Origin: a virus | Direction: 5' to 3' (one strand) | DNA: 52,653 nucleotides | UHGV virus genome: UHGV-0083175 | The notes under the pieces: model-generated | Told to the model about the DNA's origin: nothing | The model's database searches: none | Seen by the model: only the letters and a program-made list of their open reading frames with translations | Shown: positions 4,680 to 33,333 of the stretch, piece by piece | How positions within the stretch are numbered: the stretch's first letter is position 1 | Layout: every line of letters begins with the position of its first letter | Made by a program: the position numbers and the translations under genes

Positions 4680-4969
4680 CCTGGCCTGAAGCGTTCATAA
4701 CGGTAGGAATTGCAATGGCGGTGGCGCTGGTGGTGTATTCGATTTGCCGCTGGGGATAAAAACGGTTTGCGGGGAAAGAAGAGTTAAGTAGAATTGCTGC
4801 GGGTGCTTGAGGCTGTCTGCCTCGGGCATGCCGACGTAAGGCAGACAGAGAAAAGCCCCAGTTAACATTATGCGTCTTGCAGGACGCTTAACATTAATCT
4901 GAGGCCATATCTATGACTTGCACACTTAGATTAGCCTCTTATGCGCCGAAAGGCAAGGAGCAGCAGGCT

Positions 4970-5125
4970 ATGAAGCAGCAAAAGGCGATGCTAATCGCCC
5001 TGATCGTCATCTGTATTACCGTCGTTGTAACGGTACTGGTAACGAGGAAAGACCTCTGCGAGGTACGAATCCGAACCGGCCAGACGGAGGTCGCTGTCTT
5101 CACAGCTTACGAATCTGAGAAGTAA
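4970..5125 (+). CDS. hok: Hok/Gef-family membrane toxin (type I toxin)
   Basis: MKQQKAMLIALIVICITVVVTVLVTRKDLCEVRIRTGQTEVAVFTAYESEK is near-identical to HokD/RelF; internal Met of ORF 4913..5125. Confidence 0.85.
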   Translation: MKQQKAMLIALIVICITVVVTVLVTRKDLCEVRIRTGQTEVAVFTAYESEK

Positions 5126-10235: not shown

Positions 10236-10310
10236 GGCCCTTTAGCTCAGTGGTGAGAGCGAGCGACTCATAATCGCCAGGTCGCTGGTTCAAATCCAGC
10301 AAGGCCACCA
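10236..10310 (+). tRNA. tRNA with CAU anticodon (ileX-like tRNA-Ile2/Met), acceptor stem one nt short
   Basis: Hand-folded cloverleaf: D-arm GCTC/GAGC, anticodon loop CTCATAA, T-arm GCTGG-TTCAAAT-CCAGC, 3' ACCA; 3' acceptor strand AAGGCC versus expected AAGGGCC. Confidence 0.55.
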
Positions 10311-10319
10311 TATCACATA

Positions 10320-10396
10320 CCGCCATTAGCTCATCGGGATAGAGCGCCAGCCTTCGAAGCTGGCTGCGCGGGGTTCGAGTCCTCGATGGCGGTCCA
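10320..10396 (+). tRNA. tRNA-Arg (anticodon UCG)
   Basis: Complete 77-nt cloverleaf: acceptor CCGCCAT/ATGGCGG, anticodon loop CTTCGAA, T-arm CGGGG-TTCGAGT-CCTCG, 3' TCCA. Confidence 0.8.
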
Positions 10397-11168: not shown

Positions 11169-11560
11169 GTGTTAAATCCCTCACAATTCAGTAAGTTGAC
11201 AGTTGCCTGTCAGACTGAGCATTTGTTAAAAAAATTTCGCATGGTGAATCCCCCTGTGCGGAGGGGCGACTGGTGAACGGTATGATCTCTTTGATGATCG
11301 TAAGCGAGAATACGCGGGTTTGGTGTCACCGGGCTGAACTCACCGGGAGGCACCCGGCACCATGCTCATGGTGATACAGAAATGCGGCTTCAGCCCCTCT
11401 CCGGAGGGGCTTTCTTATGGACAAAAAAAGCCCGCGCTGGGAGACGCGGGCGGCAAGGAATAAACAATAAAACGTGAAGTAATACTTCAACTGGCGAATA
11501 ATACCCGACAGTAATCACTCTGCGCAATAGCGCGGCCTTTTTCGAATTGCGGGCTGTAGT
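11169..11560 (+). repeat. structured repeat unit A (with 3' extension shared with unit D)
   Basis: Shares with three downstream units the blocks GTGTTAAATYCCTCACAATTCA, TTGTTAAAAAA, GCATGGTGAATCCCCCTGTGCGGAGGGG, CACCGGGAGGCACCCGGCA and a terminator hairpin. Confidence 0.8.
11239..11416 (+). ncRNA. candidate small RNA, repeat copy A
   Basis: Runs from conserved GCATGGTG to terminator GCCCCTCTCCGGAGGGGC + T-run; 5' CATGGTG can pair with 3' CACCATG; two internal hairpins. Confidence 0.35.
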
Positions 11561-11575
11561 CTCCCTTCTGCCGGG

Positions 11576-11735
11576 TGGCCTGGTTGCAGATTTCTTCATG
11601 GGGTAGGGTTCGGCAGTTAAAGCAGCGATGGCGCTGGGGCGTCGTGCAACTGGCGTTGAGCTGGATACCGGGCGTTTTGAACAGACTGCGCAGGAAATCA
11701 GGGATGTATTTAGCGGGAGCGGTTTGCAGAAGTAA
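11576..11735 (+). pseudogene. duplicated 3' fragment of the DNA methyltransferase gene
   Basis: ~150 nt nearly identical to 10041..10195; translates as GLVADFFMG*GSAVKAAMALGRRATGVELDTGRFEQ with an in-frame stop. Confidence 0.6.
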
Positions 11736-11798
11736 TCTCCCAAAATGCCATTTTTGGAATATACTGGTATTAAGTCTTTTTGCTCAGGTTAATTCAAA

Positions 11799-12524
11799 AT
11801 GGATGTTGCCTGCTCTGTGGTCCTGATTCGCTATCCGATAGATATTTTTCTTGAAAAAGAAAAAGTTTCACTCGATGCCGGAAGTGTTATGCTTGTTGCC
11901 AGAAATATAAGAGGGCTTTTCTGTGCTTATGCCGACAGAGTGAAAATGGCAGATATAAGTAACAGCGTCGTCAATCAGTATCTGGAAAGGGAGTGTGAAC
12001 TGACGGAGTATACACCGACAAAAATGCCTCTTTATTTGATGTCTGATATTTACAATACGGAACTGGCGGAGGCTTTAATAACCCAGCATAGTGAATCCAG
12101 TGATACTTTGAAGGATTTCTCTGTTATAACCGCATTTTCATGTATCTCCTTATTTGCAACAGACAGGCGTCTGCCATTATTTTTGTCCGGTGCTGTAAAT
12201 AATATCAGCTGTAAAGTAAGGGCTATAATTCAGACCGACATATCGGCAGGCTGGATGCTAGGTGTGATTGCATTACAATTGCATATGAGCGAAAGCTTGT
12301 TGAAGCGAAAACTTAAGGATGAAGGTTATAGCTTTAGTCGGTTGTTGCTGGAGGAGCGAATGCGTGTTGCTGTTAATCTTGTATGTTTCCAGCGAGAGTG
12401 TGGACAAGCGATAGCGGAAAAATGTGGTTACTCAAGTAAGTCCTATTTCATTTCTGTATTTCACCAGTATTATGGTGCACCACCTGAGAGCTATGCATAT
12501 TTGCAGAAAGCAGACGTTATCTGA
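11799..12524 (+). CDS. AraC-family transcriptional regulator (moron)
   Basis: 241 aa; C-terminal double HTH (GWMLGVIALQLHMSESLLKRKLKDEGYSFSRLL...IAEKCGYSSKSYFISVFHQYYGAPPESY); AT-rich. Confidence 0.6.
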   Translation: MDVACSVVLIRYPIDIFLEKEKVSLDAGSVMLVARNIRGLFCAYADRVKMADISNSVVNQYLERECELTEYTPTKMPLYLMSDIYNTELAEALITQHSESSDTLKDFSVITAFSCISLFATDRRLPLFLSGAVNNISCKVRAIIQTDISAGWMLGVIALQLHMSESLLKRKLKDEGYSFSRLLLEERMRVAVNLVCFQRECGQAIAEKCGYSSKSYFISVFHQYYGAPPESYAYLQKADVI

Positions 12525-12613
12525 TGTTTTTTCATCAGGCATATATTGATTGACTGTATTAGATATAGTCTGAATGTGTTCAGCATAAAAAGTTATAATC
12601 ATTTGGTGTTTGC

Positions 12614-12892
12614 GTGAATATTGATGAGAAAATCAGATGTAGCCAACTGTTACAGCGTATTGAAGCCGTCAATGTGGAACGAACAAAGGTCTTCAGTCGT
12701 CTGACAGTTTTATTTTGTACCCCTGATCGACGTTCAGGTCAGGAGATGGTTCTTCTGGATGTAGATGCACTTCGGAACGTCTGTGAGGAGTTCACCGCGG
12801 CTAATTCGGAGTTACTGAGTCTTGTTCAGGAGTACAACAGAATTGCAGGTAGTAACGGTTTTGATGAAATCAAAATTATATCCCGTGGATAA
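12614..12892 (+). CDS. hypothetical protein
   Basis: 92-aa ORF with GTG start downstream of the AraC-like gene; no recognised motif. Confidence 0.3.
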   Translation: MNIDEKIRCSQLLQRIEAVNVERTKVFSRLTVLFCTPDRRSGQEMVLLDVDALRNVCEEFTAANSELLSLVQEYNRIAGSNGFDEIKIISRG

Positions 12893-13210
12893 AACATATC
12901 CTGTATATTTATGTTGTTACATACAGGCGCTTTTAGTATCTGCCGCACGGCAGTTGTACTTTAGAATAAGATGCTTTTGTGACTGGTGGTGTTGTATCTG
13001 GGGTTAGCCAGGAGGCAGGTTCAGAGAGTCCGGTGGTAATTATGTGTATGCAGTGGTTGTTGCTGTACCGTGGGCAAGTTCTGGAACTGGCTTCGTCCAT
13101 TGTAGATGATTGTTAGCTGGATATCAGTTACCTCATGGAAATGTTAAATGACTCACAATTCGGTTGATGGACTATTGTCTGATCGATGGAAGTCTTGTAA
13201 AAACGAGCCA

Positions 13211-13377
13211 GCATAGTGAATCCCCCTGTGCGGAGGGGCGTCTGACATGGTCTCCATAGCGATGGTCACAATACGCAGATTCAGTAGTCAGGCTGAATCT
13301 ACCGGGAGGCACCCGGCACTATGCTGCTTATGGTGTATACATAGCGATCGGCCCCTCTCCGGAGGGGCTTTTTTTGT
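13211..13377 (+). ncRNA. candidate small RNA, repeat copy B
   Basis: GCATAGTG...CACTATGC long-range pairing (compensatory versus copy A), conserved hairpins, terminator GCCCCTCTCCGGAGGGGC + TTTTTTT. Confidence 0.35.
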
Positions 13378-13469
13378 GCGGGAAAAGGCTGTGTTGTTAA
13401 GTGTTAAATTCCTCACAGTTCAGATGGTTGATGCTTGCCTGTCTGAGGGGGAGTTGTTAAAAAAGTTCT

Positions 13470-13637
13470 GCATGGTGAATCCCCCTGAGCGGAGGGGCAT
13501 ATCAGCGCAGGTGTTTCTACTCTATCCTTTCTGTGCGGGTTCAGGTGCTGATACTGAACTCACCGGGAGGCACCCGGCATCATGCATATGGTTAACAGAC
13601 ACGTAGCGAAGCCCCTCTCCGGAGGGGCTTTTTTATG
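13470..13637 (+). ncRNA. candidate small RNA, repeat copy C
   Basis: GCATGGTG...CATCATGC pairing with one G-U wobble, conserved hairpins, terminator + T-run. Confidence 0.35.
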
Positions 13638-13729
13638 CAGGGAAAAGGCTGTGTTGTGAAATGTTAAATTCCTCACAATTCATGAGGTTGATGATTGTCT
13701 GATTGATGAGGAGTTTGTTAAAAAAAACG

Positions 13730-13884
13730 GCATGGTGAATCCCCCTGTGCGGAGGGGTGATATCGTATCATTTCATGTGTGGCCGACTGATATCACGGAC
13801 ATTTGTTCACCGGGAGGCACCCGGCACCTGCAGTATACAGAGATTAGGCATACATCCAGGCTCCTCATCGCAGGAGCCTTTTTA
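13730..13884 (+). ncRNA. candidate small RNA, repeat copy D
   Basis: Conserved 5' blocks; terminator replaced by compensatory variant GCTCCTCATCGCAGGAGC + TTTTT. Confidence 0.3.
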
Positions 13885-14115
13885 CATGTAAAAAAAACCG
13901 CTCCCGGGAAGAGCGGTTGGCAAGGAAGCAAGGAATAAATAACAAAACGTGAAGTAATTTATTCAGCACCCTAATAATACCTTAGAGTAATCACCTTGCG
14001 CAACTGTAAGGGCGTATTTCTTTTTTGCGGGCTGTTTTTCTGTGTGACTTTTGTGTTTCCGGAGGTCAGTCCGTGCCTTCTCTGACTCAGAACATTATCC
14101 CGGCCGGGAGGATTC

Positions 14116-21538: not shown

Positions 21539-22102
21539 GTGCTGACAACGCAAAAACGAAAATTTGCGCTGGCGCTCATGTCCGGGAAAAACAAAACAGC
21601 GTCAGCCATTGCCGCCGGTTATTCGGCGAAGACAGCCAGGGTTAAAGGCTCGCAGCTGGCAAAAGATCCGGAGGTGCTCGCGTTTATAGCCCGTAAGCAG
21701 TGCGAGACGGTAGAGGTGGATGAGGTTCCTGTTTACCGGCAGAAAAAATCAGAGCAGGAGGATAAACCCCGTCGCCGTGAGGCGGCTGCAATACCACAGC
21801 CGGACGAAACAAATCCGGAGATGCCTCTGCCCGTGGTGATATCTCCTGGTATTGAGTATATGGATGACGGTCTTCCCGATCCGGTGAAAGCGATGGGGCG
21901 TCTTCTGGTGGAGAACATTAATACCGACCCCAGGCTGGCGCTGGATGTGGCTTATAAGCTGGCACAGTTCACGCACCACAAAAAAGGGGATGCCGGTAAA
22001 AAATCGGCAAAAGGTGACGCGGCGAAAAAAGCGGCTAACCGTTTTGCGGTGCCACCACCCCCCCGACTGGTGGTGAATAATGATAATGAGGGCAGCGGAT
22101 GA
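21539..22102 (+). CDS. terminase small subunit
   Basis: N-terminal HTH KRKFALALMSGKNKTASAIAAGYSAKTARVKGSQLAKDPEV; directly upstream of the terL N-terminal fragment. Confidence 0.8.
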   Translation: MLTTQKRKFALALMSGKNKTASAIAAGYSAKTARVKGSQLAKDPEVLAFIARKQCETVEVDEVPVYRQKKSEQEDKPRRREAAAIPQPDETNPEMPLPVVISPGIEYMDDGLPDPVKAMGRLLVENINTDPRLALDVAYKLAQFTHHKKGDAGKKSAKGDAAKKAANRFAVPPPPRLVVNNDNEGSG

Positions 22103-22380
22103 TACCTGTGTGGAGCACGGCCTGCCCGGACTGGGCAGAGCGCCTGAAAAAGGGGCTGTCGATTATTCCGGCTCCGATTTACCCGGACCAGGCCGCACAT
22201 GCCCTGGCGATTTTTAAACAACTGCGGATTGTGGATGCACCGGGCAGCCCGACGTTCGGGGAGTCCTGTGCACCGTGGGTGTTTGATCTGGTGGCTGCCC
22301 TGTTTGGCTCCTACGATGCGCAGACCGGTGTACGCCATATAAAGGAAGTGTTCATTCTGATACCGAAAAATAATAGATAA
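22099..22380 (+). CDS. terminase large subunit, N-terminal fragment (gene split by satellite insertion)
   Basis: 93 codons ending ...KEVFILIPKNNR*; the remaining terL sequence resumes in frame ~9.5 kb downstream (...IPKKNSKSTLAAG...). Confidence 0.7.
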   Translation: MIPVWSTACPDWAERLKKGLSIIPAPIYPDQAAHALAIFKQLRIVDAPGSPTFGESCAPWVFDLVAALFGSYDAQTGVRHIKEVFILIPKNNR

Positions 22381-22543
22381 TAAAAAAACAAATAAAGTGT
22401 TTATTTGTTTTTTTCTACGTTTTATCAAATAGTTATGGTTATCTTTGCTCTATGTTTTTATGTGTTGCTAACGGCAGATTTTAACGCTTTGTTGTTGACA
22501 TGGACTAACCGATGAACCATAAACTTTATCTGTAGGGGCATTT

Positions 22544-23779
22544 ATGCTAATCAAACCGTTAAGCCATGTTGAAGTAAAGAACGCAAAACCAAAGGATAAA
22601 GATTACTCGCTTCATGATGGATTTGGGTTGTTGTTATATGTTTCAAGAAAAGGCTGTAAAACATGGCGTTTCAGGTATCAGCACCCCGACACCAAAAAAA
22701 GACAAACGCTTACCATTGGTCGTTATCCAGATTATTCAATAGCTGAGGCAAGAGAGGAAAGGGATAAAGCAAGGAAATTACTTTCAAGAGGTGTGGATCC
22801 TAATGAGTCTAAGCGCAAGGCAAAATCTGAACGAATTATGCTGAGGTCACAGACCTTTGAAAAAATAACAAATAACTGGTTTGAATTGTATTTAAAGGGA
22901 AGCAGAAGGGAAAATACAGTAAAAACAGTTAGCAGAGTTATTAAAGTTTATATTATTCCTGATTTTGGGGGTTGGACGATTTATGATATACGTGCTGATA
23001 ATGTATTGTCAGTTATTAGAAAATATGACGAAACGCCTGCACAGCAACGAAAAATAGTACAGGTTATGCGTCTTGTTATGGATTATGCCGTGAATGCTGG
23101 AATTGTTCAGTTTAATCCGTTGTCTCGTATTCATAAAGCGCTTCCACCTATGGAAGAGAAAAGCTTTAAGGCGCTGCCCATAGAAAGATTACCCGCTTTT
23201 CTTAATTGGCTTGAGTCAGAAAGTTGTCATCCATCAATAACATATGGTCTTCTTTTTATGATGCTGACAATGACCAGACCTAACGAGGCATTAGGTGCCA
23301 AATGGTCAGAACTGGACGTTGACAGAAAACTATGGACCATTCCAGCAGAGAGGATGAAGGGGAAAAGAGAACACATTATTCCTTTATCTTTACAGGCTGT
23401 TGAAGTGATAATGCGAATGAGAAAAATAAAACAAAGTGAGTATGTTTTTTTTGGTGCTCATTCAGTTGCAAAGGCAATAACGAGAGATGCTATTGTCAGT
23501 AGGGTTAATAAAAGCGAGTTTGCAAAGGAAATGACAGTACACGGATTCAGGTCAATGTGGAGCACATTACTCAATGAAGAGGGATTTAACCCCGATGTTA
23601 TAGAGGCTGCACTTGCACATAAGAGCGGAAATACTGTAAGGGATATTTATAACAGGACGTCATATATTGAACAGCGGGTAATAATGATGCAATGGATAGG
23701 TGATTTTGTCGATTCTGCAAGACGTGGGGTTATTGTTAGGACGCATGGTAAACGCGGTTTAAAATTGGTAAATGAATAA
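22544..23779 (+). CDS. int: tyrosine integrase (P4-type)
   Basis: 411 aa; P4-integrase-type N-terminus and C-terminal catalytic domain (HGFRS...LAH...Y); adjacent to the left junction. Confidence 0.85.
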   Translation: MLIKPLSHVEVKNAKPKDKDYSLHDGFGLLLYVSRKGCKTWRFRYQHPDTKKRQTLTIGRYPDYSIAEAREERDKARKLLSRGVDPNESKRKAKSERIMLRSQTFEKITNNWFELYLKGSRRENTVKTVSRVIKVYIIPDFGGWTIYDIRADNVLSVIRKYDETPAQQRKIVQVMRLVMDYAVNAGIVQFNPLSRIHKALPPMEEKSFKALPIERLPAFLNWLESESCHPSITYGLLFMMLTMTRPNEALGAKWSELDVDRKLWTIPAERMKGKREHIIPLSLQAVEVIMRMRKIKQSEYVFFGAHSVAKAITRDAIVSRVNKSEFAKEMTVHGFRSMWSTLLNEEGFNPDVIEAALAHKSGNTVRDIYNRTSYIEQRVIMMQWIGDFVDSARRGVIVRTHGKRGLKLVNE

Positions 23780-23791
23780 GGTGTACAATAT

Positions 23792-23998
23792 ATGAATGAT
23801 ATAAATAATAGTCAGATTTTGTTGCGTGATGATGTGATGAAAAAATTGCGATACAACAACGCGGCTGCTTTTCATATGTTTTTTAACAGAACGCCGGACT
23901 TTCCAAAGCCCTTCAAGATAGGCCGTCGCAATGCCTGGTATGAAGAGGATGTGCAAAATTGGCTTGATGAACAGCGAAGAAAAGCCCTTGAGGAGTGA
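23792..23998 (+). CDS. alpA: AlpA-family excisionase / transcriptional regulator
   Basis: 68 aa; FPKPFKIGRRNAWYEEDVQNWL matches the AlpA/Xis HTH signature; immediately downstream of int. Confidence 0.7.
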   Translation: MNDINNSQILLRDDVMKKLRYNNAAAFHMFFNRTPDFPKPFKIGRRNAWYEEDVQNWLDEQRRKALEE

Positions 23999-24056
23999 AC
24001 GTAAAAGAACAGGCGTCCTTAAAGGTCGCCTGTTATGTAGTAGTGGAATATTACAA

Positions 24057-24419
24057 TCATGTTTTTTTTGATGCTATGTAAGCAAGAATGCACGGTTCCT
24101 TTGCCAGTTGTGACCCTTTCGATCTGGCTGTTTTCGCACTGTATCCAGCAAGAATAGCGCACTGTGTCTGATTCAGCCCTTTCATCATGTAATCAGCAAA
24201 TTTCTTTTTTTGCTTCGTCAGCTTGTTTGTTTGGTCGTTTTTATCATCGTTTGCGGTAAAAACATTAGATGTGGTCTTAAGCTGATGTTTACAGGCTTCA
24301 ATTACCCACGATGAGAAGTTGGAGTGCGCTTTATCTCTTTCTATGCGTTTTTCAATATCAGCTAATAAGTCAGGCGGGAAGCGGATCCCCTTAAGTATCG
24401 CTTTGCGTGTTTTGTCCAT
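24057..24419 (-). CDS. RHH domain fused to a terS-like HTH domain (putative satellite regulator)
   Basis: N-terminal GIRFPPDLLADIEKRI...NFSSWVIEACKHQL (RHH); C-terminal KKKFADYMMKGLNQTQCAILAGYSAKTARSKGSQLAKEP near-identical to the helper TerS N-terminus. Confidence 0.55.
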   Translation of the reverse strand: MDKTRKAILKGIRFPPDLLADIEKRIERDKAHSNFSSWVIEACKHQLKTTSNVFTANDDKNDQTNKLTKQKKKFADYMMKGLNQTQCAILAGYSAKTARSKGSQLAKEPCILAYIASKKT

Positions 24420-24692
24420 TCATGGCCCCAAAATAAGTAGTGTTAACTTGTTACTATTTAACAGTTTTTGAGGGTGTGTTAAACAAAAAACTGGTTTGTG
24501 TTTAACGAAAATCGCTTCGTGTTAAACACGTTGCCTAGTTAGTGGGGACAGATGACGAGTTGATCAAACCTGCCGGATAACAGGCAAAGAAAAGGCCACC
24601 TGTCACGGTGGCCCTTCGACACAAATTTCGCGTTATCCCCAACGCATGAGCATCGCCGACAATGCCACATTTACGGCTGGTGGACAAGGCTA

Positions 24693-24920
24693 TCAGCCAG
24701 GCGGTCGGTTTTTAGTGGCTTTTAACCGCCGTGGGTATTTCTCGACAAAATCTTCAAGGGCAAATTTTTCTGGTGGCATTAAGCGCGGCGCTGGTGGTGG
24801 TATTTTTGTTCTGGTTAGTTCTTCCTCAACTCTGGCGCAGGCTTCTGACTGCCTTTGCCGGATGATTTCATCATCTTGCGTTTGCGTGTCTTGTATTGGT
24901 GATAGTGTGTTGTTGGTCAT
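24693..24920 (-). CDS. hypothetical protein
   Basis: 75-aa minus-strand ORF downstream of the small RHH gene; weak RBS. Confidence 0.3.
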   Translation of the reverse strand: MTNNTLSPIQDTQTQDDEIIRQRQSEACARVEEELTRTKIPPPAPRLMPPEKFALEDFVEKYPRRLKATKNRPPG

Positions 24921-24977
24921 GATACTGCCCTGTAAAGCAATGCGCCGTAGTACCTCACACCACGGCGCTGATAGTGA

Positions 24978-25157
24978 TTATTCTGATTCTTTGGCCTTGC
25001 GGCGCTGGCGGCGTTTGATCTCGCCTTTTGCTGCCGTAACTAGAAATCCGGCGGTACTTTCGCCAGGTTCTTTAAGTTGCTCAATATCGGTCATTACCTC
25101 ATGCGGGATTCTGACCGTTGTCATTTGTGATTTTGCGTTCTTTGCACCTGTTGCCAT
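24978..25157 (-). CDS. small DNA-binding protein (possible satellite repressor)
   Basis: 59-aa ORF with AGGAGA RBS (MATGAKNAKSQMTTVRIPHEVMTDIEQL...); faces a divergent promoter region containing inverted repeats. Confidence 0.45.
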   Translation of the reverse strand: MATGAKNAKSQMTTVRIPHEVMTDIEQLKEPGESTAGFLVTAAKGEIKRRQRRKAKESE

Positions 25158-25177
25158 TTCTGGTTCTCCTGATAATC

Positions 25178-25270
25178 GGTGTATTTCAGTATACGCAAAA
25201 AAAAAGATAAAAAAAGTCTTGCGGTGTATTTCACCTGAATGTAGATTTAAAAATGAAGGTGAAATACACC
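25178..25270. promoter_or_regulatory. operator-like inverted repeats in the satellite divergent control region
   Basis: GGTGTATTTCACC (25223-25235) and its exact reverse complement GGTGAAATACACC (25258-25270), plus a third half-site GGTGTATTTCAG at 25178. Confidence 0.45.
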
Positions 25271-25343
25271 TAAAACAACAACGCCCCGCAGTGATGGGAA
25301 CACATACGGGGCGTCTAACCAACAACGTAAACGAGGAGCCGTT

Positions 25344-25541
25344 ATGGTTGCCGTAAATCATATACCACACCTTGTACACACACAAACGGCCTTTGTGTGG
25401 CGTTTTCTGGCACTGAGTGCCGGAGAATCTCAAATCATCCACGTAACCGCCTGGACGGAACGCGAAGCGCGTAACCGTTGCCCGTCCGGTTGTGTTGCTG
25501 TATTTGCCGCCCGTATTCGTCAGGAGGTGCGCCATGATTAA
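25344..25541 (+). CDS. hypothetical protein (first gene of the satellite rightward operon)
   Basis: 65-aa ORF with GAGGAG RBS. Confidence 0.35.
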   Translation: MVAVNHIPHLVHTQTAFVWRFLALSAGESQIIHVTAWTEREARNRCPSGCVAVFAARIRQEVRHD

Positions 25542-25746
25542 TCTGTCACTTACTGACCTTAACCGCATTCAGTTTCGTGAGAAATTCACAGGGCAGCTAC
25601 TGGTCAATGTGGATAAAGGTCGCGTGGTGTGTAATTACCACTTACCAGATGAAGCAATTGTCGCCACAAGGGAATCATTACAGGAAATCACAAAACGTGC
25701 CGGAATGATTAACACGAATATTCAGGGGATGCTTTATGCACAATAA
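25534..25746 (+). CDS. hypothetical protein
   Basis: Internal ATG with CAGGAGGTG RBS; 70 aa. Confidence 0.4.
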   Translation: MINLSLTDLNRIQFREKFTGQLLVNVDKGRVVCNYHLPDEAIVATRESLQEITKRAGMINTNIQGMLYAQ

Positions 25747-25975
25747 AACCACACCGGACGCAGCCGCCGAAGCCATCAAAACGCTGATGCACGCGCTGAT
25801 TGATATTTCTGTTATCGCGGACAGGGCACATAAGCACGCCACCAGCGAAACAGAATATGCCGGTGCTTTCGTTCCTCACTCACTGGCTGTCATGCAATTT
25901 AGTGCTGATACGGCGCTGAATGAGGCCAAAGCTATCCTGATTGCTGATTGTGAAAATGGGGGGGGTTATGCGTGA
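25736..25975 (+). CDS. hypothetical protein
   Basis: 79-aa ORF, translationally coupled to neighbours. Confidence 0.35.
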   Translation: MHNKTTPDAAAEAIKTLMHALIDISVIADRAHKHATSETEYAGAFVPHSLAVMQFSADTALNEAKAILIADCENGGGYA

Positions 25976-26201
25976 TGATCGTTTTAATTCCCTGAAACAG
26001 GAATTTTCCGGCGTTCCTGATGATGCGGCTGATGCGCTTTCGTCAATGCCAGAACTTATTAGAGCGGCTTTTTTCTTACTTTCCACGAGAGAATATAAAT
26101 CAACGGGGCTTGATGTACTGAATATCGCCGCCGATTATGCGGAATATGTGGCAGAGGCGCGTTATAGAAGAAAATTTCCTGAGGATGTAAGCCATGCGTG
26201 A
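25968..26201 (+). CDS. hypothetical protein
   Basis: Internal start MRDDRF... of ORF 25941..26201. Confidence 0.35.
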   Translation: MRDDRFNSLKQEFSGVPDDAADALSSMPELIRAAFFLLSTREYKSTGLDVLNIAADYAEYVAEARYRRKFPEDVSHA

Positions 26202-26732: not shown

Positions 26733-28126
26733 AACTGGCACCGAATGTAAAACTGTTACCGAAAGATAAACACACCGAAGCGGTTATTTTTGCGGGTGAT
26801 AATGCTCACTCATTTGCAGAGCACTACATCATTGCACAGGCCAAAAAAGCAGGCGATCCAGTCCCTCCCGTTTACCTGGGGCGTTATCAGTTAAGCGAAC
26901 TGGATAACTTGCAGATTGTTGATAAAGGTCGGTTCAGGGCGAAAGTGATACGTGCCGGAAATATTGACGAAGTGCAGTTGTTAACCATCGCCACGAAACT
27001 GGCAATCGCAGGAGTCCAGGAAGCGCGCCTGTTTTCTGAAAATTTCGAATTGCTGGAGGAATGGAGCGACCAGCTTACACGGCTTAGGGAGACATGGGAA
27101 CGCGGGGAAAGCCTGAGCCACCAGCGAAAAACAAAGCTACCGATGAGCGTTGGATCTGCCGGATACGACACGCAATTAGATTACGTGGTAAAGGGGATTA
27201 TTCCGGCATCGTCGCTATGCAGCATATACGGGGCGAGCGGTTCATATAAATCGTTCCTTGCGGGTTCGTGGGCGTGTCACGTTTCCACGGGCCGCCAGTG
27301 GGGAGGCCGCAGGGTTGCACATGGTGCAGTTCTCTATGTGGTTGGTGAAGGCGGTATTGGTGTTCCGCGTCGTGTAAAAGCCTGGGAGGTTGTGCACGGT
27401 GAGCAGGTGAAAAATCTGTATCTGGTAAACCGTCCCATCTTTCCGGCTGTCCCGCTTGATGTTGATGAAATGGTTATCGCTGCCCGCCAGGTGGAACGGG
27501 AAACCGGTAAACCTGTACGCATGATTATTCTGGATACGCTGGCGCGTTGCTTTGGCGGCAATGATGAAAATGACTCCCGCGACATGGGGGCATTTATCCG
27601 TGGTTGTGACGAGCTTAAACGGCGCACAGGGGCCACTGTGCTGGTGGTTCACCATTCCGGCAAGGATGAAACAAAGGGGGCGCGTGGTTCCAGTGCATTT
27701 CGTGCTTCGCTGGATGCTGAATACCGGATACGCAGGGAGGACGCAGGAAGCGAAGCGCTGGTTATCTCATGCACCAAAATGAAGGACGCGGAGGAACTCA
27801 AAGAGGCTGCCTATGATTTGCGGGTGGTGGAGCTTTTTACCGACGCTGACGGGGAGTTAATCACGTCGCTGGTGGTGGTGGATAAGTCGCGCCCTCCCGT
27901 TGAACTGGAGCGCATCGAAGAGGCAGGCAACAAGACGGAAAACCATACCGCGCTATGGGGGTGTATCCGTTCACGCACACAGAACGGCGACAAGTGCACG
28001 ATCCCGCTGTTACGTGATGACATGAAAAAACTGGGGTACGAAATAAAGCACTTCCGGCGCTGGCTGGGCAAGCTGGAAAAAGACGGCGTTATCTATGTTG
28101 ACGGCGATGATGTAGGGCCACTGTAA
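26729..28126 (+). CDS. satellite replication protein (RecA-fold primase/helicase-type ATPase)
   Basis: 465 aa; Walker A-like GASGSYKSFLAG, Walker B region MIILDTLARCFGGNDEND and VLVVHHSGKD. Confidence 0.75.
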   Translation: MKLAPNVKLLPKDKHTEAVIFAGDNAHSFAEHYIIAQAKKAGDPVPPVYLGRYQLSELDNLQIVDKGRFRAKVIRAGNIDEVQLLTIATKLAIAGVQEARLFSENFELLEEWSDQLTRLRETWERGESLSHQRKTKLPMSVGSAGYDTQLDYVVKGIIPASSLCSIYGASGSYKSFLAGSWACHVSTGRQWGGRRVAHGAVLYVVGEGGIGVPRRVKAWEVVHGEQVKNLYLVNRPIFPAVPLDVDEMVIAARQVERETGKPVRMIILDTLARCFGGNDENDSRDMGAFIRGCDELKRRTGATVLVVHHSGKDETKGARGSSAFRASLDAEYRIRREDAGSEALVISCTKMKDAEELKEAAYDLRVVELFTDADGELITSLVVVDKSRPPVELERIEEAGNKTENHTALWGCIRSRTQNGDKCTIPLLRDDMKKLGYEIKHFRRWLGKLEKDGVIYVDGDDVGPL

Positions 28127-28328
28127 AAAGTGGGGGGCAAAAGTGGTGGGCATGGGGAATTTAACAAAATTTAAACACGACCCCCCACTTTTTGACCTGT
28201 ATACATCCCAAAAAGTGGGGAGCAAAAAAATACTTATGAAACAGCATGATAAAAATTACAAATCCCACGCCTTTAACGAGATGGGGAATTGTGAAAAGTG
28301 GGGAGTAAAAGTGGGTATAGGTGGGGAG
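28127..28328. repeat. iteron cluster (candidate satellite replication origin)
   Basis: Repeated AAAGTGGGG(A/G) motifs at 28127, 28140, 28210, 28294, 28307, 28320 plus inverted copy CCCCCCACTTTTTG at 28181, directly after the replication gene. Confidence 0.5.
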
Positions 28329-31755: not shown

Positions 31756-31974
31756 TGTAGTGCGCCGCATTACTGGTTATGTGAATGCGGCGCATAGGGC
31801 CTACGAAAAACAAAATTAGTTTACGTTATCTTATGTAACCATATTTAACGGAGAAGACTAAAACGCGGACTATTTAGTGTCAGTGCGTGAGCCTAACAGC
31901 ATAATAAACAAGATATTAAGATAGCTTTACGCATACCCAAAAAAAACAGCAAGTCCACGCTGGCTGCCGGGATC

Positions 31975-33333
31975 ATGATGACGGCGCTGTTACTGAACTG
32001 GCGGCAGGCGGCGGGCTACACCATTCTGGCCCCGACCGTGGAGGTGGCGGCTAATGCCTTCAATCCTGCCAGGGATATGGTACGACGGGACGATGATCTG
32101 GATGACCTCTGTCAGGTGCAGACACATATCCGGACCATCACCCATCGGGTGACGGACACCACCCTGAAGGTGGTGGCAGCCGATCCGAATACGGTGTCCG
32201 GTATCAAGTCCGTGGGGACACTGATTGATGAACTGTGGCTGTTTGGCAAGCAGTACAAAGCGGAGGACATGTTACGTGAAGCCATAGGTGGCCTTGCCTC
32301 CCGCCCGGAAGGGTTTGTGGTGTATACGACCACCCAGTCGAATGAACCGCCCGCCGGGGTGTTCAGACAGAAACTGCAGTACGCCCGGGATGTGCGCGAC
32401 GGCAAAATTCATGATCCGCACTTTCTGCCGGTGATATTTGAGCATCCGCCGGAGATGGTGGAGCGCGGTGAGCACCTGCTGATGGAAAACCTCGCCATGG
32501 TCAATCCGAATCTCGGTTATTCGGTGGATGAGGCCTTTCTGTACCGGGAGTATCGTAAAGCCCGGGAAGCCGGTGAAGATACATTCCGGGGGTTCATGTC
32601 AAAACACGCCAATGTGGAAATTGGTCTTGCCCTGCGTTCTGACCGCTGGGCGGGTGCGGATTTCTGGGAGCAGCAGGGCAGGCGCGTCAGCCTGGACGAT
32701 ATTCTGCAGCGCGCTGATGTGGTGACGGTGGGGATTGACGGCGGGGGCCTGGATGATCTGCTGGGAATGTACGTGATTGGCCGTGACAGGGAAACCCGCG
32801 AATGGCTGGGCTGGGGCCATGCCTGGGCGCATGAAACCGCGGTGGTCAGACGGAAGAGTGAGGCATCCCGTTTTCAGGATTTTGTGGCCTGTGGAGACAT
32901 GACGATTGTCCGTCGGGTCGGGGATGACACGGCGGAAGTGGCGGAGTATGTGCGTCGTATTCATGAGGCTGAGTTACTGGATCATATCGGTATTGACCCG
33001 TCAGGTGTGGGGCAGATTCTGGATTCACTGGCGGAAGCCGGGATCCCCGACGGAATTGTTGTGGGGATAAGCCAGGGCTGGAAGCTGGGCGGGGCCATCA
33101 AAACCACCGAGCGCAAACTGGCTGAGGGAGTGCTGGTGCATGGTGGTCAGCCACTGATGGCCTGGTGCGTTGGCAATGCCCGGGTGGAGCCTAAAGGTAA
33201 CGCCATCCTTATTACCAAACAGGCCAGCGGACGGGGGAAAATTGACCCGCTGATGGCGCTGTTCAATGCGGTATCCCTGATATCCCTGAATCCGGAGCCC
33301 AAAAAGAAAGAATATGCGGTTTTTTTCATATAA
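31975..33333 (+). CDS. terminase large subunit, C-terminal portion (split gene)
   Basis: Frame open upstream to 31897 with no start codon, encoding ...IPKKNSKSTLAAGIMM (Walker A-like); LIDELW Walker B, nuclease motifs VTVGIDGGG and IGIDPSG. Confidence 0.7.
   Translation: MMTALLLNWRQAAGYTILAPTVEVAANAFNPARDMVRRDDDLDDLCQVQTHIRTITHRVTDTTLKVVAADPNTVSGIKSVGTLIDELWLFGKQYKAEDMLREAIGGLASRPEGFVVYTTTQSNEPPAGVFRQKLQYARDVRDGKIHDPHFLPVIFEHPPEMVERGEHLLMENLAMVNPNLGYSVDEAFLYREYRKAREAGEDTFRGFMSKHANVEIGLALRSDRWAGADFWEQQGRRVSLDDILQRADVVTVGIDGGGLDDLLGMYVIGRDRETREWLGWGHAWAHETAVVRRKSEASRFQDFVACGDMTIVRRVGDDTAEVAEYVRRIHEAELLDHIGIDPSGVGQILDSLAEAGIPDGIVVGISQGWKLGGAIKTTERKLAEGVLVHGGQPLMAWCVGNARVEPKGNAILITKQASGRGKIDPLMALFNAVSLISLNPEPKKKEYAVFFI

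Follow-up and report, generated by a model that had tools for sequence, protein, structure and literature searches.

Organization of the satellite control region

We analyzed the control region of a phage satellite carried in the viral genome UHGV-0083175, a stretch of 52,653 nt that is hereafter called the window and in which all positions are numbered. In this region, the small minus-strand gene ylcI and an early operon on the plus strand, which begins with a gene for an Icd-like protein, diverge from each other. Three copies of a short repeat, designated O3, O1, and O2, lie between them, and the location given by an original prediction made from this sequence was borne out. The features of the region are collected in Table 1. 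From this examination, we consider it likely that O3, O1, and O2 are operators of the adjacent 59-amino-acid (aa) YlcI/YnfO protein, which has a predicted ribbon-helix-helix (RHH) fold, and that this protein represses the early operon of the satellite.

Table 1. Features of the control region and of neighbouring parts of the satellite, given as positions in the window (HTH, helix-turn-helix).
Feature	Position	Strand	Description
ylcI, 59-aa YlcI/YnfO-family protein	24978-25157	-	Predicted RHH repressor; ribosome-binding site GGAG at 25167-25170
O3, degenerate operator	25178-25190		GGTGTATTTCAGT; left half kept, right half replaced by the leftward -10
Leftward ylcI promoter, -10	25193-25188	-	TATACT; overlaps the right half of O3; predicted start ~25181
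A-rich tract	25197-25215		Between both promoters; UP-element-like for the rightward promoter
Rightward early promoter	25219-25247	+	-35 TTGCGG (25219-25224), 17-nt spacer, -10 TAGATT (25242-25247); predicted start ~25254; read by eye
O1, operator	25223-25235	+	GGTGTATTTCACC; shares the final 2 nt of the -35 hexamer and occupies the rightward promoter spacer
O2, operator	25258-25270	-	GGTGAAATACACC; O1 site with centre inverted; ~+5 to +17 of the rightward transcript
Candidate ~78-nt cis-antisense RNA gene	25272-25362	-	-10 TATGAT (25362-25357); predicted RNA from ~25350 to ~25272
GC-rich hairpin	25281-25314	-	Probable 3' stem-loop or terminator of the antisense RNA
Icd-like 65-aa protein, first early-operon gene	25344-25541	+	NF033153, E 5e-18
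Integrase	22544-23779		Upstream of the control region
Weak AlpA-like gene	23792-23998		Upstream of the control region
Paralogue, 120 aa	24057-24419	-	YlcI_N (RHH-like) domain fused to the N-terminal HTH part of a small terminase subunit; Pfam Terminase_2, DUF3950; NF041551, E 1.7e-9
Second operator cluster	24440-24529		Four GTGTTAAACAC-type dyads (24440-24447, 24476-24485, 24498-24506, 24519-24529); precedes the second YlcI_N gene

The perfect inverted repeat that had been reported here was present, with 14-nt arms at 25223-25236 and 25257-25270 and 20 nt between them. The 13-mer GGTGTATTTCACC was found on the plus strand at O1 and on the minus strand at O2, and a third copy of the repeat, CGGTGTATTTCA, was located at 25177-25188 in direct orientation, 45 bp upstream of O1. 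These repeats are far beyond chance expectation: perfect inverted repeats (arm length 13 nt or more, loop up to 60 nt) occurred at a mean of 0.03 per simulated 52.6-kb sequence (first-order Markov model of the window, 200 runs), and an 11-mer repeated three times within 100 nt was encountered in 0 of the 200 simulations. With at most one mismatch allowed, GGTGTATTTCACC was matched four times in the window compared to 0.04 times expected. It was also noted that one-mismatch copies of the operator lie at 47422-47434 and 50329-50341, inside helper tail genes; GGTG-N5-CACC as such is approximately 8-fold over-represented in the window, and these tail-gene copies may be chance occurrences.

The repeats had originally been described as a palindrome accompanied by a half-site. 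While the repeats themselves stood, the geometry did not, because each 13-mer is itself a 4+4 dyad of the form GGTG-N5-CACC (GGTG-TATTT-CACC in the window). The inverted repeat is therefore better read as two separate dyads with asymmetric centres facing each other, and the region as three independent dyad sites rather than one palindrome. O1 and O2 were found as direct repeats in some of the other specificity classes described below (C, F, H, and I). The centre-to-centre distances in the window are 45 bp between O3 and O1 and 35 bp between O1 and O2.

The promoters were located by eye and by positional conservation among relatives. A sigma-70 consensus scan called neither of them, the rightward promoter being missed because it agrees with the consensus at 8 of 12 positions only. 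Of 44 non-redundant control regions in relatives, 40 had TTGnnn at this offset and, after a further 17-18 nt, TAnnnT, and TATACT or TATAAT was present at the leftward -10 offset in 41. The A-rich tract keeps its A-richness in relatives while its sequence varies, and it may act as an UP-like element of the rightward promoter. The three sites overlap core elements of both predicted promoters, with O1 occupying the -35/-10 spacer, O2 lying just past the predicted start, and O3 covering the leftward -10 and start; in other classes, O2 sits on the rightward -10 or the start.

Related control regions and specificity classes

We scanned one genome per species and obtained 38 related loci from Escherichia, Yersinia, Pectobacterium, Xenorhabdus, Photorhabdus, Klebsiella, and others. 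Further loci were taken from E. coli records and exact-protein look-ups, for a total of approximately 50 loci in more than 15 enterobacterial genera. A distant-mode blastn search of a phage database gave no match to the control region. The architecture was fixed across these loci. In an unbiased search for the commonest repeated 11-mer of each control region, always three copies were found, at +20, +65, and +88 to +104 from the ylcI ATG. O3 was always 20 nt from this ATG and was always the third copy of the locus-specific repeat, and O1 was at a fixed +65 in all loci. O2 was likewise conserved, with a distance from O1 (22-39 bp) and an orientation that differ between classes. In class A, to which the window belongs, all three sites were invariant over 11 genera, in contrast to the O1-O2 spacer, which differed in both sequence and length.

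Nine classes were distinguished by YlcI residues 10-17, each with its own site core and with the outer GGTG/CAC(C) retained (Table 2). The central 5 bp of the site changes in step with YlcI residues 12 and 14. Loci that share these two residues share a site despite different residues 13 and 15, as seen for SQSITVRVL and SQSVTARIA, which are both accompanied by GGTGTAAGACACC. A near-minimal pair to class A (L051) combines M12L and T13F with a change from TAT to TGT in the site, in an otherwise class-A architecture. Sites were also predicted blindly from residues 12 and 14 (T12/A14, S12/T14, and L12/T14), with the DNA fetched afterwards, and all three predictions were correct.

Table 2. Specificity classes by YlcI residues 10-17 and their sites.
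Class	YlcI residues 10-17	Site
A (window)	SQMTTVRI	GGTGTATTTCACC
B	SQL(T/F)TVRV	GGTGTGTTTCAC
C	SKKLEARV	GGTGGCTGACACC
D	SQT(V/L/I)AARV	GGTGTT(C/T)AACACC
E	SQS(I/V)T(V/A)R(V/I)	GGTGTAAGACACC
F	SKKMQARV / SQKLQARA	GTGGAG(C/T)(A/C)CACC
G	SAQKKIRF	GTG(T/C)ACCCCCAC
H (EcCICFT073)	SQALKARV	GTGGGCCACACC
I	SLQVSVRL	GGTGGTGTTCACC

The YlcI protein

The 59-aa protein matched the NCBIfam YlcI/YnfO family NF041551 with 62.1 bits (cut-off 30; E 3.8e-17), and the identical RefSeq protein WP_000190458.1 is named YlcI/YnfO family protein. It belongs to PHROG 949, which is listed with function unknown. A Pfam search gave no significant match, with the best hit (E 0.03) to an unrelated family and none to Arc, RHH_1, or CopG; a PDB sequence profile search found no relative, and Foldseek returned no match. 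An AlphaFold model built with 29 family members (mean predicted local distance difference test score, pLDDT, 87.5) showed an extended N-terminus followed by helices at residues 19-28 and 35-58. This is the beta-alpha-alpha arrangement of the RHH (Arc/MetJ/CopG) superfamily, and the top structural matches of the model include the RHH antitoxins CopA_SO, HicB, and TacA. According to the model, YlcI is a member of the RHH superfamily by its fold, and not by way of curated sequence families.

In the family alignment, the variable positions are concentrated at residues 11-15, the predicted DNA-reading strand, while N7, K9, S10, and R16 are invariant or nearly so. This clustering and the covariation of the strand with the site centre give indirect support to a dimer whose paired beta-strands would be inserted into the major groove of the dyad sites.

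The reader of the sites

We further compared the proteins of the window with all related loci by tblastn. The AlpA of the window had no homologue in any class-A locus, the integrases of loci with the same site were at most 34% identical to that of the window, and the replication proteins were of different types. The Icd-like protein is 100% identical in one locus (L001b) and 94% identical in another (L003), yet these carry a different YlcI class and site. AlpA, Int, Rep, and Icd were each rejected as the partner in site specificity, since none of them tracks the sites. Recombinant loci split the Icd-like gene from the sites and never YlcI from the sites. The repressor and its sites are, on this comparative evidence, a unit that travels together. 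The original proposal that the operators are read by the small minus-strand protein thus gains strong support from the phylogenetic footprint of the sites, the covariation across nine classes, and the three correct predictions out of three.

Two further arrangements were noted at this position. In one E. coli island (L001, 4050-5163), two ylcI-operator modules of different classes lie in tandem, each with its own sites, and only a remnant of a first gene follows the first module. In the satellite of E. coli O157:H7 FRIK2455 (L048, 2270-2500), the ylcI slot holds an unannotated leftward open reading frame (ORF) beginning MSTPLEKRSPPYQMRLPEDF. Its product appears by eye to be an Arc-like RHH protein unrelated to YlcI, and it is accompanied by two GGTAATTACC dyads of its own together with the same hairpin/leader and icd gene.

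Alternative explanations

Other readings of the sites were weighed against repression of the early operon by YlcI. It is unlikely that YlcI binds mainly as an activator or architectural factor, either driving its own promoter from O1 or aiding AlpA or RNA polymerase. Such a dual role has a precedent in P22 Mnt, which represses Pant and activates Pmnt from a single operator, and the centre of O1 lies approximately 48 bp upstream of the predicted ylcI start. The known inducer of the E. coli island EcCICFT073 is moreover AlpA and not the loss of a repressor (PMC6092414). However, O1 lies inside the spacer of the early promoter and O2, in all classes, on or just after its -10 or start, which are classic positions for repression, and O3 covers the -10 of ylcI itself. 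A reading by another factor, such as AlpA, an arm-binding integrase, a replication initiator, or a helper protein, with YlcI as a linked passenger, was judged decidedly improbable. Adjacency alone can yield covariation, AlpA is a DNA-binding regulator of such islands (PMC6092414), and there are the two one-mismatch copies in helper tail genes to consider. Against this, identical sites occur with unrelated AlpA, Int, and Rep proteins, the recombinants part only the Icd-like gene from the sites, and the variation in YlcI is focused in the predicted DNA-reading strand and predicts the site. The iterons of the origin, in turn, are a different sequence located elsewhere.

The structural matches to RHH antitoxins, together with a small co-directional 75-aa ORF downstream of ylcI (24693-24920), would fit a type II antitoxin whose dyads serve only autoregulation. 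We regard this as very improbable, as the 75-aa ORF was present in only 1 of 41 related loci and had no family match, and two of the three sites are on the divergent early promoter rather than the ylcI promoter; the toxin-antitoxin reading was rejected for want of a conserved partner toxin gene. It is extremely unlikely that the inverted repeat acts as a nucleic-acid hairpin with a terminator-like role on the minus strand, although the 14-bp stem is perfect, the minus strand reads stem, GCAAGA, and the T-run CTTTTTTTATCTTTTTTTTT, and a weak InvR-like Rfam match (E 1.3) was recorded. The direct orientation of O1 and O2 in classes C, F, H, and I leaves no stem to form, the spacer varies in length and sequence, the third copy lies outside any stem, and each site is conserved as its own dyad. 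A hairpin or terminator at O1/O2 was rejected as contradicted by the comparative data, in which arm complementarity is not kept in relatives.

Several points weigh against repression of the early operon by YlcI as we read it. Both promoters are predicted by eye and conservation only, with an empty consensus scan, and binding, the sign of regulation, cooperativity, and the lifting of repression are all inferred from sequence. The spacings of 45 bp and 35 bp are not whole helical turns and point to no clear cooperative geometry. Part of the covariation is co-inheritance, given the adjacency of YlcI and its sites, and the nine classes amount to only about nine independent events. In EcCICFT073, expression of AlpA alone induces the island (PMC6092414).

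A conserved hairpin and a candidate antisense RNA

The range first assigned to the operators, 25178-25313, does contain them, and it also includes a GC-rich hairpin that had been left undescribed. This hairpin was conserved in all loci and was found in 504 of 5426 complete E. coli genomes; the full control region was present in 110. In an alignment of 26 distinct hairpin sequences, 96.7% of cells were paired and 8 of 13 pairs had compensatory changes. No shuffle reached these pairing or compensation values, and slid registers were 36-49% paired. Read on the minus strand, the wobble pairs comprised 31 G.U and 0 A.C, so that every wobble is a G.U pair of the minus strand and the plus strand has none. 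The mean minimum free energy was -24.2 for the minus strand compared to -17.5 for the plus strand, and the minus strand was the more stable in 38 of 38 loci. The wobble bias and the minus-strand stability therefore indicate that the structure was selected in a leftward RNA. A plus-strand leader or a nut-like boxB/boxA element, prompted by the adjoining UCUAACCA, was set aside on the basis of the 31 wobbles that are G.U on the minus strand only.

In 46 of 47 non-redundant loci, a TAnnnT hexamer, often preceded by TGn, was found on the minus strand to the right of the hairpin at a distance of 43-45 nt, compared to a per-position background of 3%. This putative antisense -10 is kept even though the coding sequence that contains it, the N-terminal part of the first gene, differs between loci. 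From these patterns, the hairpin is probably part of an antisense RNA of approximately 78 nt over the start of the icd-like gene. The candidate RNA would span the ATG and the Shine-Dalgarno sequence of this gene and terminate past the hairpin, within the tract UUGUUGUUUU. It matched no Rfam family. It was noted that this U-tract is good in the window and poor in some relatives, and termination at it is uncertain. A 5' stem-loop with covariation displays the anti-Shine-Dalgarno sequence CCUC in its loop in most relatives, while the stem is weak in the window. Rfam gave no C4 or isrK match at the gathering threshold in the window, at E values of up to 5 in 24400-26000, or in the FRIK2455 satellite, and the idea of a C4/isrK immunity RNA was dropped because these scans were empty in the control region.

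The satellite and its neighbouring features

The original view of the element as a phage satellite was upheld, and it can be specified as a helper-embedded phage-inducible chromosomal island (PICI) inserted in the terL gene of its helper. The satellite of approximately 9.6 kb (~22.37-31.96 kb) interrupts terL of a lambdoid prophage, whose N-terminal 93 codons end at 22380 and whose frame resumes at ~31950. The terL pieces lie at 22099-22380 and 31950-33333; the attachment (att) core is short, A-rich, and placed only approximately. Lysis and terS genes were found upstream of the satellite and portal and capsid genes downstream. The element contains int-alpA, Bro/regulatory, replication, and late zones and is inserted in a lambdoid late gene in the orientation of that gene, as in the helper-embedded PICIs described by Tommasini, Mageeney and Williams in 2023 (PMC10111431).

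The Icd-like gene is first in the early operon of nearly all relatives. Its product matched PHROG phrog_1743 and phrog_6196, which are labelled transcriptional repressor, and the NCBIfam assignment is cell-division inhibitor; the PHROG label may be inherited from an old protein reading of the P4 cI locus. After the Icd-like gene, the operon continues with small ORFs, DUF4222, a RepA-like helicase, a single-stranded DNA-binding protein (SSB), PerC, and small-terminase-like and capsid-like genes. Three copies of AAAAAGTGGGG (28125, 28183, and 28210) and an inverted one immediately follow the RepA-like helicase gene (28125-28220), and these repeats are probably iterons of the satellite origin.

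Other structured elements were also recorded. The left satellite junction (22382-22416), just past the truncated terL, contains a perfect inverted repeat of 15 nt, AAACAAATAAAGTGTTTATTTGTTT. On the minus strand at 24591-24616, a GC-rich hairpin (AAAGGCCACC...GGTGGCCCTT) followed by a T-run is the likely terminator of the ylcI-orf75 transcript; its weak partial Rfam matches (isrD and ctRNA) reflect terminator shape only. In the helper prophage (4801-4975, 10236-10393, and 11210-13889), Rfam gathering matches comprised a sok antitoxin RNA, two tRNAs, and four copies of the STnc100 small RNA.

Proposed mechanism and significance

In the mechanism that we propose for repression by YlcI, dimers or dimers of dimers at O1 and O2 would exclude RNA polymerase from the early promoter. 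With this promoter repressed, the icd-like/replication operon and the island as a whole would be silent, and class-specific immunity would follow. Occupation of the weaker O3, on the leftward -10, would allow ylcI to limit its own transcription. The outer GGTG/CACC would be read by invariant parts of YlcI (the N-terminal arm NAKS and R16), and residues 12 and 14 of the beta-strand would recognize the 5 bp of the variable centre. Because these two residues are proposed to read the variable centre, the module may exist in at least nine non-cross-reacting specificity, or immunity, classes.

Such a module has to be squared with what is known of induction. For Gram-negative PICIs, AlpA has been named as the activator and the global repressor has been called "unclear" (PMC6092414). 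Because AlpA alone induces EcCICFT073, YlcI is no absolute block there and may not be the induction switch that the original prediction had in mind; it may instead establish silence, with induction acting through it or bypassing it. One speculative route is that transcription running rightward from the alpA promoter or, in the helper-embedded case, Q-modified late transcription of the helper crosses the leftward ylcI cassette. Such read-through could interfere with the ylcI promoter and enter the early operon from upstream, bypassing the early promoter. Judged by their orientation, the intervening terminators (24616-24591 and near 24011-24035) would seem to serve leftward transcripts.

In the prototype island EcCICFT073 itself (E. 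coli CFT073; L043, 8474-8853; NC_004431.1, 1380473-1380852), we noted a ylcI gene (SQALKARV) accompanied by three sites of the GTGGGCCACACC type, by the hairpin, and by an Icd-like gene. The small genes of this module bear new locus tags, and no discussion of them was found in the PICI literature searched. Likewise, a search that left most subscription journals outside its reach returned no literature description of the function of YlcI/YnfO/DUF3950, nor of this repressor or these operators in Gram-negative PICIs.

More broadly, we raise tentatively the possibility that YlcI/YnfO proteins are the missing master repressors of Gram-negative PICIs, including EcCICFT073. They would form interchangeable cassettes with at least nine specificities set largely by two beta-strand residues, each coupled to a previously undescribed cis-antisense RNA of approximately 80 nt that silences the Icd-like gene, and together these would decide satellite silence and the cross-repression of co-resident satellites. 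An RHH repressor acting on two diverging promoters is an ordinary, textbook mechanism; the novelty lies in the assignment, in the specificity code, and in the candidate antisense RNA. The result is a candidate repressor with a named gene, three mapped sites, two predicted promoters, a two-residue code, and a presence in the tractable EcCICFT073. With it, the YlcI/YnfO (DUF3950) family, to which two E. coli K-12 y-genes belong, gains a probable function. Satellites with immunity classes like those of temperate phages are suggested, which would affect compatibility between satellites and between satellites and helpers and would bear on the design of PICI-based delivery tools.

Comparison with known systems

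The control region shares several features with P22 immI (Mnt/Arc, Pant/Pmnt, and the sar RNA). In both, a small RHH repressor, a predicted one here, is divergent from the operon under control, dyad operators lie over back-to-back promoters, and one ribosome-binding site of that operon is overlain by a short antisense RNA, although here this RNA is a candidate only. The two differ in that YlcI has no sequence relationship to Arc or Mnt (no Pfam match), that three sites of one kind take the place of separate Omnt and Oarc, and that an Icd-like and replication operon is controlled in a satellite rather than an antirepressor in a phage. CopG and RNAII of pMV158 likewise combine an RHH protein on a 13-bp pseudo-symmetric promoter element with an antisense RNA that blocks translation of the first essential gene, in dual control of a replication operon. 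However, the copG gene shares a transcript with repB, and its product acts on this same operon as a repressor, whereas the repressor here is divergent, with three sites and two promoters, and CopG and YlcI are without sequence homology.

An Icd-like first gene behind a structured RNA-immunity leader is also found in P1 immI (c4 RNA - icd - ant) and recalls the P4 CI RNA, and RNAs of the C4/isrK type have been reported in some PICIs (Tommasini et al., PMC10111431). In contrast to these, no C4/isrK match occurs here, and the structure appears to be selected on the opposite strand, as a cis-antisense RNA and not a processed RNA of the sense strand. With Stl/Rpr of Gram-positive PICIs, including the Staphylococcus aureus pathogenicity islands (SaPIs), the region shares its position and presumed role, with a divergent repressor gene, presumed here, between the integration module and the early/replication operon. 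Stl/Rpr are larger HTH proteins relieved by a helper-phage protein, while YlcI is a 59-aa protein of modelled RHH fold, and only its genomic position is analogous to these master repressors. By analogy, then, the control region most resembles P22 immI and the CopG and RNAII pair of pMV158 in its predicted function, and Stl/Rpr in its position.
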